Below are positions 19,192 to 24,000 of a stretch of DNA of 24,000 nucleotides, piece after piece (the stretch's first letter is position 1; each line of letters opens with the position of its first letter). The position numbers and the translations under genes were made by a program. Source of the stretch: Candidatus Calditenuaceae archaeon HR02 (GTDB lineage Archaea; Thermoproteota; Nitrososphaeria_A; Caldarchaeales; Calditenuaceae); assembly GCA_002898395.1 (NCBI GenBank), contig BEHE01000007.1, positions 3,631-27,630 on the forward strand, written 5' to 3'. The notes under the pieces were generated by a model. The model had not been told where the DNA came from. It saw only the letters and a list, made by a program, of their open reading frames with translations, and did not search any database.

Positions 19192-21336
19192 ATGGCCGGC
19201 TCGGTGAGGGCTTTCCTCGGTAGGGCGTCGGATGTTTTCTTAAGCTTGGACAGGAAGGTTGGTGGTAAGGAGTTTTACGCCCCTCTCGCCGTGCTATTGA
19301 TAGCTGTGGCAGTGACTTTCATGTCGAGGTCGCTACCCGCTAGGTGGGGATTCATTTTGAGCGAGTTCGACCCCTGGTGGCACTTCAAGACCGCTTCCAT
19401 GATCGTTGAGAGGGGGTGGGCAGGGTTCTTCGAGTTCTCCGGACTCGTAGATAATAAGAGCTGGTATCCGACCGGCCTCCAGGTTGGCAAGACCTTCTAT
19501 CCCGGAGTCTCATTCACCCTCGCATTCATCTATCTCGCCCTCTCCTCCATCGGAGTCAATGTAGACTTAATCGAACTCGCGTCAACCCTACCGGTATTAT
19601 ATGGCATCTTAGCGGTAGTAGTCACATTCTTGCTAGCTAGGTACGTTTTGGGGACAGGCCCAGCAATATCCTCGGCCCTGCTAATGTCCATAAGTTATGC
19701 ACACATCTCTAGGACGCACCTTGGGTGGCTTGATGACGAGGCGCTAGCTATCCCGCTCATGCATGCAGCCTTCCTGACATATCTCGCATCGATAAACGAG
19801 AAGAGGTCTATTAAGGGCTCCCTAGTCATGGGGCTGCTTACAGGGCTTCTCCTCGGCTACACCGGCGCTACATGGGGTGCACACAGGCTTCCAGTCATGA
19901 TGGTCTTCCTGTTTACTGCGCTCCTAGTATTCATGGGCAGGTATAGGAGGCAGCTTCTAGCGAGCTTCATACCACTACTCGCCTCAACGTCAATAATACT
20001 GTTGAGTGTCCCGAAGCTAGGCTTCTCGTACCTGTTTGAGATCACTCTCCTTTCAGGATATTTGTCACTGGCGTATGTTGTGTTGGCTGAAGTGCTCTAC
20101 CGATATATAGGGTCTCAGAGAGCGGTAATAGCACTAAGGGGGATTGCCATAGGGCTCATGTTGCTCGTAGCCGGCTTGGTTGTAGCCGAGGTTGCCAATC
20201 TTCCGGGGCTAAAATTCCTCTCAGTGGTTTTCCCCCAGCTAAGAGGCGAGCTGGTGATAATCGCCTCGGTAGCCGAGAACCAGGCCGCGACTTGGTCAAC
20301 ACTTTTCACAGACTTTGGACCAACGCTGATGTTGGTGCCTTTTGGAATCTACCTCCTCATCAAAAGGGCTGGAGACGGGGACATATTCTTCACACTCTAC
20401 GCAGTCCTCTCACTGTACTTTGCCTCCTCGCTTGTCCGGCTGGCCCTACCCACCTCCCCCATCGTCGCCATCTTGGCTGGCTTTGTCTTAACAGAGATGC
20501 TTGCGCTCGCGTCTAGAAATCTTATCCAACCCCGTGGACCTAGGGTGAGAAAGACTGGTGAGAGGAGGTTTTTGATTACTGTCCCACTGATTATTATGGC
20601 TCTGATATCAATCTACTATCTCCCACAGGCGATGGGAAATACTTGGGCATTCTCGTCCCTCGACGCTGCCTATACTCCCAGCACGATAACCTCCGCATCA
20701 CTTCCAACAGGCAGGAACTTAGTATTGAATGACTGGGTGCGCGCGGTTGAGTGGATGAGGAACAACCTTCCAGACAACGCCGTTGTAGCAGCATGGTGGG
20801 ACTATGGCAACTGGATATCAATAGTGGCTAACAGGACCTCGCTAGTAGATAACACGACAATAGACAGTCTAAGAATAGCAAAAGTAGGGTATGCATTCCT
20901 ATCACCAACCAACGTTAGTCTAAGGATCTTCAAAGAGATGGGCGCGACACACGTTCTCATCTTCGTCACACATAGACCACAGACGGGGGCTGGAGACTAT
21001 CCCAGGCTCCTCTACTATGGCGACGAGTCTAAATGGTTCTGGATGCTCCGCATAGCCAATCAGCATGCACGCCAGCTCGGGCTGGCTCCAATAGACGAGG
21101 TGGCGGTCCTCGGTCCCAATAGGGACCCGACGAACCCTACAGAAAAGTTCTGGACCGATACTACGCTCGGTAGACTGATACCGTTCAAGCCTAGGCAGAC
21201 CACAGACGCATTCGGCAACACTGTAACTGCATACTATTATGAGGAGCCTAGGGTCGAGGGTTATAGGCTAGTGTTCGCATCCTCGGCACCTTACTCTAGC
21301 TTGGCGTACGTATACATCTATGAGATTACTGGTTAG
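19192..21336 (+). CDS. aglB: archaeal oligosaccharyltransferase AglB (STT3 homologue)
   Basis: WWDYGNWI motif (20794-20817). The first external loop has EFDPWWHF, followed by WLDDE. There is a multi-TM N-terminal domain and a soluble C-terminal domain. Confidence 0.92.
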   Translation: MAGSVRAFLGRASDVFLSLDRKVGGKEFYAPLAVLLIAVAVTFMSRSLPARWGFILSEFDPWWHFKTASMIVERGWAGFFEFSGLVDNKSWYPTGLQVGKTFYPGVSFTLAFIYLALSSIGVNVDLIELASTLPVLYGILAVVVTFLLARYVLGTGPAISSALLMSISYAHISRTHLGWLDDEALAIPLMHAAFLTYLASINEKRSIKGSLVMGLLTGLLLGYTGATWGAHRLPVMMVFLFTALLVFMGRYRRQLLASFIPLLASTSIILLSVPKLGFSYLFEITLLSGYLSLAYVVLAEVLYRYIGSQRAVIALRGIAIGLMLLVAGLVVAEVANLPGLKFLSVVFPQLRGELVIIASVAENQAATWSTLFTDFGPTLMLVPFGIYLLIKRAGDGDIFFTLYAVLSLYFASSLVRLALPTSPIVAILAGFVLTEMLALASRNLIQPRGPRVRKTGERRFLITVPLIIMALISIYYLPQAMGNTWAFSSLDAAYTPSTITSASLPTGRNLVLNDWVRAVEWMRNNLPDNAVVAAWWDYGNWISIVANRTSLVDNTTIDSLRIAKVGYAFLSPTNVSLRIFKEMGATHVLIFVTHRPQTGAGDYPRLLYYGDESKWFWMLRIANQHARQLGLAPIDEVAVLGPNRDPTNPTEKFWTDTTLGRLIPFKPRQTTDAFGNTVTAYYYEEPRVEGYRLVFASSAPYSSLAYVYIYEITG

Positions 21337-22091
21337 CCGATATAGGAGGGTGCGCTCCCCCTCCGCTCCATCTCTTCAAAGAACCTACTAGCCTCTCTCA
21401 GAAGTTGCTGCTGCTTCTCTATCTCCGCGTCTAGCTTGGACGTGTCAACGGGTATCCCGAGGTATCCTGACAGTATTGCCAAAACCTTCTTCGCCGAGGC
21501 TAGGTCTGGCGCGAGGCCCATAGTGTCTGATATTAAGAGATCCATGGGTATGCGGTTCAGGTGGAACCGTAGCATCAGCGAGGATGTGAGTCTATCGACA
21601 GGCAGTGTTTCGATGTTCGTTGCAGCTTTTGCTCCTAGGCGGACCAGCCGTCTTACCCTCTCCATATCCGTGGATGATGCGTAGACCTCGCCTGAGGCAT
21701 TGACCCTACCGCTTGTAAGGACTACAAGGGCGCTGATCTTTGACGAGGGGAGATAGTTGAGCAAGATCTCCGATACCTCTTCACCCACCTCGGTTGTCTC
21801 TATGATGAAGTTCCTCGTCACGATAAGTAGTGCTTGCCTCTGGTTTGTGCGAGGCCTCGCGAGGTAGACCTCAATCTTAGGTGGCGCGGCAACGCCTTCA
21901 TTGTTTATCAAAGTGACTTGGGGGAAATGTGGTGAGAGGATCTCCGCGGCCTTAATCGCCTCTAAGCTCTCCTGTAGGATGCTAGAAACGATGAGTGCGA
22001 CAACCCCAGGCCCACCACCTGCATCTACGATGGTGTACTCTACGTCGTCTATCGGTACTTGAGTAAGCTTATTAAGCCTCGTCTCCCTCAA
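21333..22091 (-). CDS. PAC2-family proteasome assembly chaperone homologue (PbaA/PbaB-like)
   Basis: 252 aa. The N-terminal GGGPGVVALIVSSIL ... SPHFPQV pattern and the C-terminal helical tail are typical of archaeal PAC2/COG1938 proteins. The predicted start is TTG. Confidence 0.65.
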   Translation of the reverse strand: MRETRLNKLTQVPIDDVEYTIVDAGGGPGVVALIVSSILQESLEAIKAAEILSPHFPQVTLINNEGVAAPPKIEVYLARPRTNQRQALLIVTRNFIIETTEVGEEVSEILLNYLPSSKISALVVLTSGRVNASGEVYASSTDMERVRRLVRLGAKAATNIETLPVDRLTSSLMLRFHLNRIPMDLLISDTMGLAPDLASAKKVLAILSGYLGIPVDTSKLDAEIEKQQQLLREASRFFEEMERRGSAPSYIG

Positions 22092-22194
22092 GCCCTGCCT
22101 TTAATCCTGATATACGGTCTATTAAATACATCAACGAGTCCCATGTTTTGTATAGGCTGGTCTTTTTATATCATATTTGTGTAGGTATATGCAG

Positions 22195-22205
22195 TTTAAA
22201 TATAT
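22195..22205 (+). promoter_or_regulatory. TATA-like box for the rhodanese gene
   Basis: TTTAAATATAT centred about 34 nt upstream of the ATG at 22234. This argues against the longer ORF start at 22177. Confidence 0.45.
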
Positions 22206-22233: not shown

Positions 22234-23079
22234 ATGAGCGAAGAGCAGGAGTTACCGGTTCTGGTTTCCACCGAGTGGGTTGCGAAAAACCTCAACAGAC
22301 CCGATGTCCGTGTAGTTGAGGTCGACTATGACCCGCAGACAGCCTATTTTCAAGGACATGTGCGGGGGGCCGTCCTTTGGGACTGGAAAAAGGACATCAA
22401 CGATCCTATAGAGAGGAACATCATCAGTAAGGAGGGGTTCGAGTCCCTCTGCTCGCGTAGCGGAATCTCAAATGACACCCACATAGTCCTTTACGGCGAT
22501 TTCAACAACTGGTTTGCCGCCTTCGCATTCTGGGTTGCTAGACTTTACGGCCACCAGAAGTTGAGTATAATGGATGGTGGTAGGAAAAAGTGGATAGCTG
22601 AGGAGAGGGAGCTTGTGAAGGAGGCCCCTAGCCCAGCCCCGACCAGTTATAAGGTCACTAAGGTTCGATATGAGTATAGGATTCTTCTACCTGATGTCCG
22701 CGCAAGGCTCGGGAGCCCCACGGTAGCTTTAGTCGATGTGAGGTCGCCGGATGAGTATACTGGAAAAATCTTAGCTCCTCCCGAGTATCCTACAGAGCAC
22801 GCGCAGAGGGGAGGCCACATTCCTGGCGCAGTAAACATACCGTGGGCACGGGCACTTAACGAGGACGGCACCTTCAAACCCATCGAGGAGTTGAGAAGGC
22901 TCTACCAAGGCATGGGAGTGACGCCTGATAAAGAGGTGATAACCTACTGCAGGATTGGTGAGAGATCGTCCGTGACGTGGTTTGTTCTCAAGGAGTTGCT
23001 CAAGTATCCTAAAGTCAGGAACTATGATGGAAGCTGGAGCGAGTGGGGCAACGTAGTCGGCACACCAATAGAGAAATAA
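22234..23079 (+). CDS. tandem-domain rhodanese (thiosulfate/3-mercaptopyruvate sulfurtransferase family)
   Basis: Two rhodanese domains. The active-site loop is YCRIGERSS in the C-terminal domain, followed by [10 protein letters not shown] chose the start at M20 of the track ORF from the promoter position. Confidence 0.85.
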
Positions 23080-23104
23080 GCCGAGAGGGTAGTTATCCTA
23101 GGCT

Positions 23105-23782
23105 GTGGTGGAAGAAATCCAAGCCTGCGGCTTCTCGAGCAACCACCTATACTTTCTCGAAGAGATGCTGTGGCTGAGCCCGATTCGGGACAGAGTTTTT
23201 AGAGTCGGAATACTACCAATTACTCAGACTCTTTGGGGTAAGGTAACCTCAGTAAGTGTTAAGCAGCCTGGTGACGAGGTTGCGGCGAACAGGGCTATCT
23301 GCCTTATAGAATCCCGTAGATTCTTAGGCAATGTCAGGGCTCCTTTCGACCTGAGGATAGAGCGCCTCAACATGGAGGCTGTTGAGCGGCCTTGGATTTT
23401 GCAGAGGGGCTTCGGCGAGGCTGCCTGGCTCTGCGAAGTGGCCGCCTTAGAGGATAATTGCTTGACCAGGCTGAAGAGTTGGAGCGAGATAAGGGGGGAG
23501 GTAGAGAGGATGATCAGCGAGAAGGGGATAATCTGTTTCAGAGAAGTGCCAGACTATGTACACGCCGCGATCGGGATTGACTGTAGCCAGCTACTTATGG
23601 TGCTCTCAGACAAACTTGAAGGTCTTCCTGAGGGAAGCATCATCCACATAGTTGCCGACTATAATGAGGGGGCTGAGAAGGATTTGGAGAAGTGGAGCAG
23701 AATTACGGGGAACGAGGTGCTGGACTTTAGGGTAGAGAAGAGGCTTGCCCACGCGCTGATTCGCCGTAGGACCCAATTTTAG
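23105..23782 (+). CDS. fusion of a GcvH-like domain (lipoyl-lysine replaced by Arg) and a TusA/SirA-like domain
   Basis: The N-terminal half aligns by eye to GcvH: LYFLEEMLWL ~ LKYSKEHEWL, VGI, and ESRRF in place of ESVKA. The C-terminal half aligns to TusA: GIDCSQLLM ... GSIIHIVADYNEGAEKDLEKWSRITGNEV ... ALIRRR versus GLRCPEPVM ... ADDP ... DI ... IRK. The GTG start lies 25 nt after the rhodanese stop. Confidence 0.65.
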   Translation: MVEEIQACGFSSNHLYFLEEMLWLSPIRDRVFRVGILPITQTLWGKVTSVSVKQPGDEVAANRAICLIESRRFLGNVRAPFDLRIERLNMEAVERPWILQRGFGEAAWLCEVAALEDNCLTRLKSWSEIRGEVERMISEKGIICFREVPDYVHAAIGIDCSQLLMVLSDKLEGLPEGSIIHIVADYNEGAEKDLEKWSRITGNEVLDFRVEKRLAHALIRRRTQF

Positions 23783-23827: not shown

Positions 23828-24000
23828 ATGGTGCTACTGAAGAGTAGCCTTGGATATATGAACAGTGTTATGCAAAACCTCGCGGAGATAGATCTAAACC
23901 AGGCCGCGGAGCTGTACCGGGACCTTAAGTCAGCCGGAGTTATTGTCCCACATGGAGAGGGAAGAAGTAAAGGGGCTGTAAGCATAATCTGCAGCGAGCT
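23828..24000 (+). CDS. 5' part of a SIS-domain sugar-phosphate isomerase-like gene (runs off the window)
   Basis: Hand translation gives MVLLKSSLGYMNSVMQNLAEIDLNQAAELYRDLKSAGVIVPHGEGRSKGAVSIICSE with no stop to the window end. The G-x-G-R-S motif after an N-terminal helix is typical of SIS/PHI-type proteins. The antisense track ORF 23791..23985 was rejected. Confidence 0.45.
   Translation, partial: MVLLKSSLGYMNSVMQNLAEIDLNQAAELYRDLKSAGVIVPHGEGRSKGAVSIICSE

Follow-up and report, generated by a model that had tools for sequence, protein, structure and literature searches.

What does a protein carry when one of its halves has the fold of a lipoyl carrier, with arginine at the lipoyl position, and the other half resembles the sulfur carrier TusA? 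The question is raised by a 24,000–nucleotide (nt) stretch of the genome of Candidatus Calditenuaceae archaeon HR02 (contig BEHE01000007.1, positions 3,631 to 27,630; the whole stretch is referred to below as the window), in which a rhodanese gene is followed by a gene coding for such a fusion. We consider it somewhat probable that the two products form a sulfur-transfer unit, composed of the rhodanese and a dedicated carrier in which a TusA-type module is joined to a module of the LbpA type, LbpA being the lipoate-binding protein of sHdr (heterodisulfide-reductase–like) sulfur oxidation (Cao et al. 2018, eLife, PMC6067878). The carrier would act as a lipoate-independent three-cysteine persulfide relay, a mechanism that we infer. 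Our statements about what the two proteins are appear highly probable.

The rhodanese gene and the fusion gene

The features of the locus, in window positions, are as follows.

22163–22205, plus strand: AT-rich region, putative promoter of the pair (two TATA-like boxes, read by eye)
22234–23079, plus strand: two-domain thiosulfate-sulfurtransferase–type rhodanese, 281 amino acids (aa) (Pfam Rhodanese, 123.5 bits in two stretches)
23080–23104, plus strand: intergenic spacer of 25 nt without a TATA-like box (sequence reading)
23105–23542, plus strand: LbpA-type (GcvH-fold) module, fusion residues 1–146 (GCV_H profile, Foldseek, cysteine columns, and trees)
23543–23782, plus strand: TusA-like module, fusion residues 147–225 plus stop (TusA profile, Foldseek, and Cys160)

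The window had previously been described from its letters alone. This original prediction reported a two-domain rhodanese with the active-site loop CRIGERS, followed 25 nt later by a 225-aa open reading frame (ORF); both are present as described, on the plus strand. The fusion ORF (23105–23782) cannot be extended upstream since an in-frame TAG is located at 23096, and the N terminus is thus fixed. The residues discussed below are encoded at positions 23126–23128 (Cys8), 23318–23320 (Arg72), 23534–23536 (Cys144), and 23582–23584 (Cys160).

Pfam GCV_H matched fusion residues 15 to 129 with 43.1 bits (cutoff of 22.2), and Pfam TusA matched residues 157 to 220 with 26.0 bits (E = 8.4e-6), slightly under its cutoff of 28.6. 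The hidden Markov model (HMM) searches proposed with the prediction were therefore positive for Rhodanese and GCV_H, while TusA stayed just short. A precomputed PF01206 match is on record for most relatives of the fusion. Scores were far below the cutoffs of the NCBIfam equivalog models, both for GcvH (45.3 versus 117 and 28.1 versus 115.85) and for TusA. An AlphaFold2 model of the fusion, built on 15 homologs, had a mean predicted local distance difference test score (pLDDT) of 92.2 and a predicted template modeling score (pTM) of 0.84. Foldseek matched its N-terminal half to GcvH 1onl_A [template modeling score (TM) of 0.86, E = 8.5e-10] and its C-terminal half to TusA 3lvj_C (TM of 0.80) and 3lvk_B (TM of 0.84). 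The predicted TusA-like half that keeps its cysteine as C-S-Q-L is supported by these fold matches. The residue in question is Cys160, within G-I-D-C-S-Q-L, and it is homologous to the active cysteine of TusA; C-P-x-P is absent here, and some relatives have C-P-G-P or C-P-E-T at this place. Only 16 residues ahead of it, at the domain junction, lies Cys144.

A word-indexed search returned 16 close relatives of the fusion (41 to 100% identity) in metagenome-assembled genomes (MAGs) of Nitrososphaerota or Aigarchaeota. An exhaustive profile search yielded ~45 more 50%-identity clusters with full-length matches of 215 to 245 aa, and a second profile search added more, so that over 100 full-length homologs of this length are now known from independent assemblies, closed genomes included. 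The family is found in Caldarchaeales, Nitrososphaerales, Bathyarchaeia, and Thermoplasmata. Named hosts are Calditenuaceae, Ca. Pelearchaeum, Bathyarchaeia, and MAGs affiliated with Thermoplasmata or Methanomassiliicoccales, as well as Nitrososphaeraceae (including Nitrososphaera sp. AFS), Ca. Nitrosopolaris, and Nitrosopumilales MAGs. Within the window’s phylum, 34 of 401 sampled species genomes contain a full-length fusion (13 of 15 in the window’s family and 16 of 17 in the sister family). Where the sources give the homologs a name at all, it is either “hypothetical protein” or “glycine cleavage system H protein,” or else the automatic [quoted passage not shown] and literature searches for a GcvH/LbpA-TusA fusion found no description. 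The arrangement had been called unfamiliar in the prediction, which agrees with the literature; it is not, however, rare. The fusion is a conserved and widespread archaeal family with automatic annotations, unstudied rather than rare, and the pipeline labels “glycine cleavage H protein” or “hypothetical” mislead metabolic reconstructions.

The prediction had also allowed for an artifact, in which a frameshift or misassembly would have joined separate GcvH-like and TusA genes. We found no point in support of it. The frame is continuous and free of stops, independent assemblies yield homologs of equal length, and the single-chain model is confident, which for practical purposes rules the artifact out.

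Cysteines and lipoyl site of the N-terminal module

LbpA is defined by a strictly conserved lysine and by two cysteines near the termini that are absent from GcvH (PMC6067878; bioRxiv 10.64898/2026.10.01.755906); both defining papers come from the Dahl laboratory (Cao et al. 2018; Kumpel et al. 2026). In Thioalkalivibrio LbpA2, the pair consists of Cys7 and Cys145, which structural models put within disulfide distance (PMC6067878; bioRxiv 10.64898/2026.10.01.755906). The LbpA cysteines are dispensable for ligase recognition (Kumpel et al. 2026, bioRxiv 10.64898/2026.10.01.755906). In our alignment, Cys8 (in the context G-C-x-F-P-x-D-L-x-Y) and Cys144 (as C-F) of the fusion align with the two cysteines found in LbpA-like proteins of 145 aa, which come from Thioalkalivibrio, Hyphomicrobiaceae, a probable Sulfolobaceae family, and Caldarchaeaceae. 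Neither cysteine has an equivalent in canonical GcvH proteins, the genome’s own among them. The family-wide conservation of these two residues had been missed in the original prediction.

Profile scores were in agreement, with 130 to 143 bits for single-domain LbpA-like proteins versus ~92 to 101 bits for canonical GcvH. In a 182-row tree, all fusions fell into one starred clade (Shimodaira-Hasegawa–like approximate likelihood ratio test, 96). In a 72-row tree (LG+C20 PMSF), the starred clade held 24 fusions plus two long-branch singles (99/94), and a starred split (100/93) parted canonical GcvH from the group of LbpA-like proteins and fusions. Monophyly of the fusions was not rejected by the approximately unbiased test (P = 0.29). 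A comparison of LbpA and GcvH isoelectric points did not discriminate between the two. Since it has the LbpA-specific cysteine pair and groups with LbpA-like proteins in the trees, the N-terminal half is, by its sequence, of the LbpA type and not of the GcvH type. The predicted likeness to GcvH thus holds for the fold but not for the protein type.

Conservation was tallied in 109 family sequences of 200 to 265 aa. Cys8 was present in 99, Cys144 in 101, and Cys160 in 107 of them, and all three were found in 30 of 30 species representatives. Only one cluster lacked Cys8, and the same cluster lacked Cys144. The lipoyl site was occupied by Arg in 65 sequences, Lys in 34, Thr in 3, and Val, Ser, Trp, Ile, and Gly in one each, with a gap in two; after reduction at 85% identity, Arg was found in 42 and Lys in 20 fusions. 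Of 80 additional loci, drawn from other orders and phyla, 39 had Arg at this site, 35 had Lys, and 6 had Thr, and the cysteines were kept. Lysine was retained in 37 of 40 single-domain LbpA-like and 40 of 43 GcvH-like proteins. Starred branches of the 182-row tree force at least 10 Lys/Arg changes at this site, and starred sister pairs in the 72-row tree differ at it. Single genera hold both residues, and one genus also lacks the conserved Glu of the E-S-x-K hairpin.

For the protein of the window, profile alignment with solved GcvH structures placed Arg72 of E-S-R-R-F at the position of the V-E-S-V-K lysine, in agreement with the substitution predicted, and all 15 sequences of the close clade have this Arg. 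Across the columns of this clade of Arg-type fusions, identity averages 66%. Of the two positions whose conservation the prediction had proposed to check, the TusA cysteine is thus nearly constant, whereas the Arg-for-Lys column varies across the family. In the fusion family, the lipoyl site appears not to be selected for lysine, and the cysteines appear to be under selection.

No match to the lipoate/biotin ligase family PF03099 was found in any of the eight genomes of the window’s genus. The window’s genome, which is 93.65% complete, contained no match to GcvP (PF02347), GcvT (PF01571), or PF03099, and no stand-alone LbpA was found in it. With Arg in place of the lipoyl-lysine, the carrier of the window would work without lipoate; the protein in this lineage, as judged from residues and gene content, cannot be and need not be lipoylated. 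A role in the glycine cleavage system was rejected since the fusion lacks the lysine, the genome lacks GcvT and GcvP matches, and a canonical GcvH is encoded separately. This Lys-bearing GcvH (contig C13:6670-7029, 145 bits to GCV_H) looks like an orphan H protein.

The lysines that do occur suggest another explanation, namely that the family consists of lipoylated LbpA-TusA proteins whose Lys forms are functional and whose Arg forms, like that of the window, are degenerate, regulatory, or decoys. The Lys-bearing third of the 109 sequences and the 35 of 80 in other phyla speak for it, as do ligase-family genes in some Caldarchaeaceae genomes. However, Arg forms are the majority, and their other residues are strongly conserved; Lys and Arg alternate among close relatives, other residues occur at the site, and the hairpin Glu has been lost in one genus. 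The ligase family is missing from all eight genomes of the window’s genus, and the rhodanese partnership described below is equal for Lys and Arg forms. We therefore regard this explanation as unlikely.

Stand-alone LbpA proteins with the lysine and the Cys pair were found in three Caldarchaeaceae genomes (G231:C6:20095-22030, G058:C6:56843-58778, and G303:C22:426-2272), in all three with an adjoining DsrE paralog. In G303, a PF03099 ligase gene also lies beside the LbpA gene. G058 and G303 additionally have the fusion; G231 has neither the fusion nor the rhodanese. For G231 and G058, the LbpA match was reported with a single in-frame TGA immediately beyond the end of the gene.

The pattern of conservation also bears on the role that the prediction had proposed for the H-like domain, a docking or swinging-arm scaffold. 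As a passive scaffold, this module would hold the TusA module in place against the rhodanese or an enzyme farther downstream, and Cys8 and Cys144 would merely form a structural disulfide that staples the N terminus to the linker. In favor of this, the lipoyl hairpin is free to vary, the pTM of the model suggests a fixed domain orientation, the two cysteines are lost jointly in one cluster, as expected of a structural pair, and the homologous LbpA cysteines are within disulfide distance in models (bioRxiv 10.64898/2026.10.01.755906). Yet the two cysteines hardly vary across hot-spring Caldarchaeales, soil Nitrososphaerales, Thermoplasmata, and bacterial LbpAs, and purely stabilizing disulfides are rarely so conserved. 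Moreover, the second cysteine of the pair lies close to the TusA cysteine at the domain junction, and the basic residue (Lys or Arg) that ~90% of sequences have at the lipoyl site suggests that a surface function has been retained. Since the LbpA cysteines are near invariant while the lipoyl position varies freely, a passive scaffold is less likely than an active role of the cysteines; we consider it improbable, if worth keeping in view.

The rhodanese partnership and proposed sulfur transfer

The rhodanese loop fits the C-R-x-G-x-R pattern of thiosulfate sulfurtransferases, with the catalytic cysteine (Cys239, codon 22948–22950) in the C-terminal domain. The nearest solved structure is 1uar_A, a Thermus thermophilus rhodanese (E = 2.5e-94). 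The gene is the sole PF00581 match in the genome and thus the only rhodanese-domain gene found there, and the loop CRIGER[AS] is present in 23 of 23 orthologs that partner a fusion. Two TATA-like boxes, TTTTTATAT (22163–22171) and TTTAAATATAT (22195–22205), were read by eye upstream of the rhodanese, 29 to 39 nt 5′ of its ATG. Since the spacer between the two genes is only 25 nt long and contains no such box, their cotranscription is suggested; the codirectional order is also seen in Caldarchaeales relatives.

Across species representatives of the phylum sample, the rhodanese ortholog adjoins the fusion at 25 of 30 loci (25 of them Caldarchaeales), mostly codirectionally with the rhodanese upstream and in three cases convergently. 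At 50 of 80 loci of Nitrososphaerales, Bathyarchaeota, and Thermoplasmata, a convergent rhodanese gene lies within 3 kb of the fusion. In the order sample, the ortholog was present in 29 of 29 fusion-bearing genomes versus 1 of 31 genomes without the fusion, a co-occurrence that corresponds to only about three concordant losses or gains once the kinship of the genomes is taken into account. In one genus (g2), the two genes are unlinked and both kept. The neighborhood within the close clade is wholly syntenic, and its loci are therefore not independent either. Rhodanese identity is 57 to 65% across phyla versus ~21 to 28% for the fusion between the window’s family and its sister family. The partnership is the same for Lys-form and Arg-form fusions. 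When all neighboring ORFs of 89 loci were clustered, no other neighbor was conserved across lineages beyond lineage-specific synteny. The rhodanese is the only neighbor of the fusion that is conserved across lineages. The coupling of the fusion to a rhodanese, proposed in the prediction from a single locus, is therefore strongly backed by both adjacency and co-occurrence.

Three nearly invariant cysteines, perhaps aided by a conserved His or Asp, could alternatively be ligands of a metal ion or an Fe-S cluster, in a redox or metal sensor or a cluster carrier rather than a persulfide carrier; His181, His216, and Asp150 do not vary in the close clade. Across the whole family, however, the His residues are not kept, Cys160 is the homolog of the TusA persulfide cysteine, and the only conserved partner is a persulfide donor. 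A metal site is very unlikely in our opinion.

In the sulfur-transfer unit that we propose, Cys239 of the rhodanese would take up sulfane sulfur, for example from thiosulfate, as a persulfide. The persulfide sulfur would move to Cys160 of the TusA-like module by analogy with rhodanese- or DsrE-to-TusA transfers, which are established (Tanabe et al. 2024, PMC11094781), and would then be passed to, or resolved by, Cys144/Cys8 at the junction with the LbpA-like module, before being handed to a further acceptor or released. The protein dithiol of Cys144/Cys8 would replace the dithiol that true LbpA has on its dihydrolipoyl group; rhodanese is known to use dihydrolipoate as an acceptor, a point discussed in PMC6067878. 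We infer the direction and chemistry of transfer, the proximity of the cysteines in the fusion, and the final acceptor, and the three-cysteine relay is accordingly offered as a tentative, although plausible, proposal. A bolder and more doubtful extension is that the LbpA Cys pair is itself a sulfur-handling dithiol, which in the archaeal fusion family would fully replace lipoate and, with the covalently joined TusA, would make up a persulfide carrier or reductase that is complete in itself, has three cysteines, and receives its charge from a thiosulfate sulfurtransferase.

Besides the small number of independent events behind the order-level co-occurrence, several points weigh against a lipoate-independent relay. 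The TusA score of the fusion lies slightly under the Pfam cutoff, and the C-P-x-P motif is missing. The narrower union of the fusions with the Cys-pair LbpA proteins received a support of only 80/78, and strong support is confined to the separation from canonical GcvH. About one-third of the family keeps the lysine; some members may therefore still receive lipoate, and independence from it may not be family-wide. The putative proximity of Cys8 and Cys144 in the fusion is drawn by homology from the LbpA models of bioRxiv 10.64898/2026.10.01.755906, and the persulfide-carrier role of family members is presumed from sequence and linkage. No downstream acceptor was identified.

Neighboring genes and relation to known systems

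In the window’s family, the neighbors of the pair are PAC2, STT3, SIS, and MFS genes. Immediately 5′ of the rhodanese (window 19192–22091) are a gene for an AglB/STT3 oligosaccharyltransferase (714 aa) and a convergent PAC2-family gene, proteasome-assembly-chaperone-like; this block is conserved synteny in the window’s family and apparently has no sulfur connection. Directly 3′ of the fusion throughout the family is a gene for a 385-aa SIS-domain protein, which occupies 23828–24000 of the window and runs on past the window’s end into contig C7 (L003:2459-3616). An MFS transporter gene lies beyond it. In Thermoplasmata (loci L013 and L014), a RidA-like gene, a GCV_T-family gene, and a divergent MOSC-domain gene are located ~1 to 2.3 kb upstream of the fusion on the opposite strand, and at some loci the fusion directly follows a pirin gene; all of this synteny is lineage-specific. 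MOSC is itself a sulfur-handling domain.

The prediction had proposed to look for co-occurrence with DsrE, Hdr, MoaD, or ThiS-type genes. No conserved shdr, MoaD, or ThiS-type neighbor of the fusion was found at the loci compared, and this part of the proposal found no support. Membership in an shdr cluster is likewise unsupported: none is nearby, and the three CCG-domain proteins of the genome are encoded at three separate loci. At the CCG-protein locus examined (contig C10:26020-34660), genes for 2-oxoacid:ferredoxin oxidoreductase subunits are followed by those for a 1128-aa HdrA-like/MvhD fusion, a 379-aa protein with ferredoxin and two CCG domains (HdrCB-like), and EtfAB, without lbpA or dsrE. 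This cluster may be an electron-bifurcating module and is not a canonical shdr cluster.

Elsewhere on the same contig (C10:6051-8330, minus strand) are genes for a DsrE2/3-like protein (DrsE_2, 135 bits), a stand-alone TusA (78 bits), an SQR-like flavoprotein, and an ArsR-type regulator. A strict link of the pair to this cluster was rejected. The distribution of the cluster in the order overlaps that of the pair only partly: two genera (g8 and g3) have the rhodanese-fusion pair without DsrE/SQR, and in another (g4) DsrE/SQR is present and the pair is absent.

Sulfur trafficking in the cytoplasm depends centrally on LbpA and TusA, and the family bears on whether TusA-type carriers pass sulfur directly to LbpA and on the role of the LbpA cysteines. 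That it has repeatedly lost the lipoyl-lysine but never the cysteines argues for modules that operate in contact with each other and for a separate function of the cysteines. Together with the rhodanese, the fusion offers a simple two-protein system in which both points could be studied in vitro. If the bolder extension given above is correct, the fusion family would parallel, without lipoate, the TusA-to-LbpA step of sHdr sulfur oxidation, or would even be its forerunner, and would operate in archaea without sHdr, soil ammonia oxidizers included.

The rhodanese is an ordinary member of the two-domain thiosulfate sulfurtransferases (1uar, 3aax, 3hwi, and 3hzu), with two rhodanese domains and a C-R-x-G-x-R loop; the chains of 3aax, 3hwi, and 3hzu are titled (putative) thiosulfate sulfurtransferase and are presumably from Mycobacterium tuberculosis. 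There is nothing special about the enzyme itself; what is new is its conserved pairing with a fusion carrier. With GcvH, the fusion shares the fold, the Pfam GCV_H match, and the E-S-x-(basic) hairpin, but it lacks the lipoyl-lysine, has the LbpA cysteines, and reaches 45 rather than 117 bits on the NCBIfam GcvH model. With TusA/SirA (E. coli TusA 3lvj, 3lvk, and 1dcj; DsrE3-TusA relays, Tanabe et al. 2024, PMC11094781), it shares the fold (TM of 0.80 to 0.84), a conserved cysteine at the N terminus of helix 1, which follows strand 1, and a sulfurtransferase partner. It differs from them in having C-S-Q-L instead of C-P-x-P and in its HMM score slightly below the cutoff, and its TusA module is the C-terminal part of a longer chain; the window’s genome also has two ordinary TusA genes that stand alone. 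The likeness to LbpA consists in a GcvH-type fold of ~145 residues, the Cys pair, the grouping in trees, and the association with TusA and rhodanese sulfur transferases. In contrast to LbpA, in which the lysine is strictly conserved, the fusion has Arg in the window and Lys, Arg, Thr, Val, Ser, Asn, Ile, or Gly family-wide. LbpA stands alone, whereas the module of the fusion is joined to a TusA domain, is not in or near an shdr cluster, and occurs in a genus in which no lipoate ligase was detected. The fusion thus resembles a TusA-plus-LbpA unit yet fails a defining feature of each parent family. It is an LbpA-TusA fusion, probably a carrier, with a conserved rhodanese pairing.

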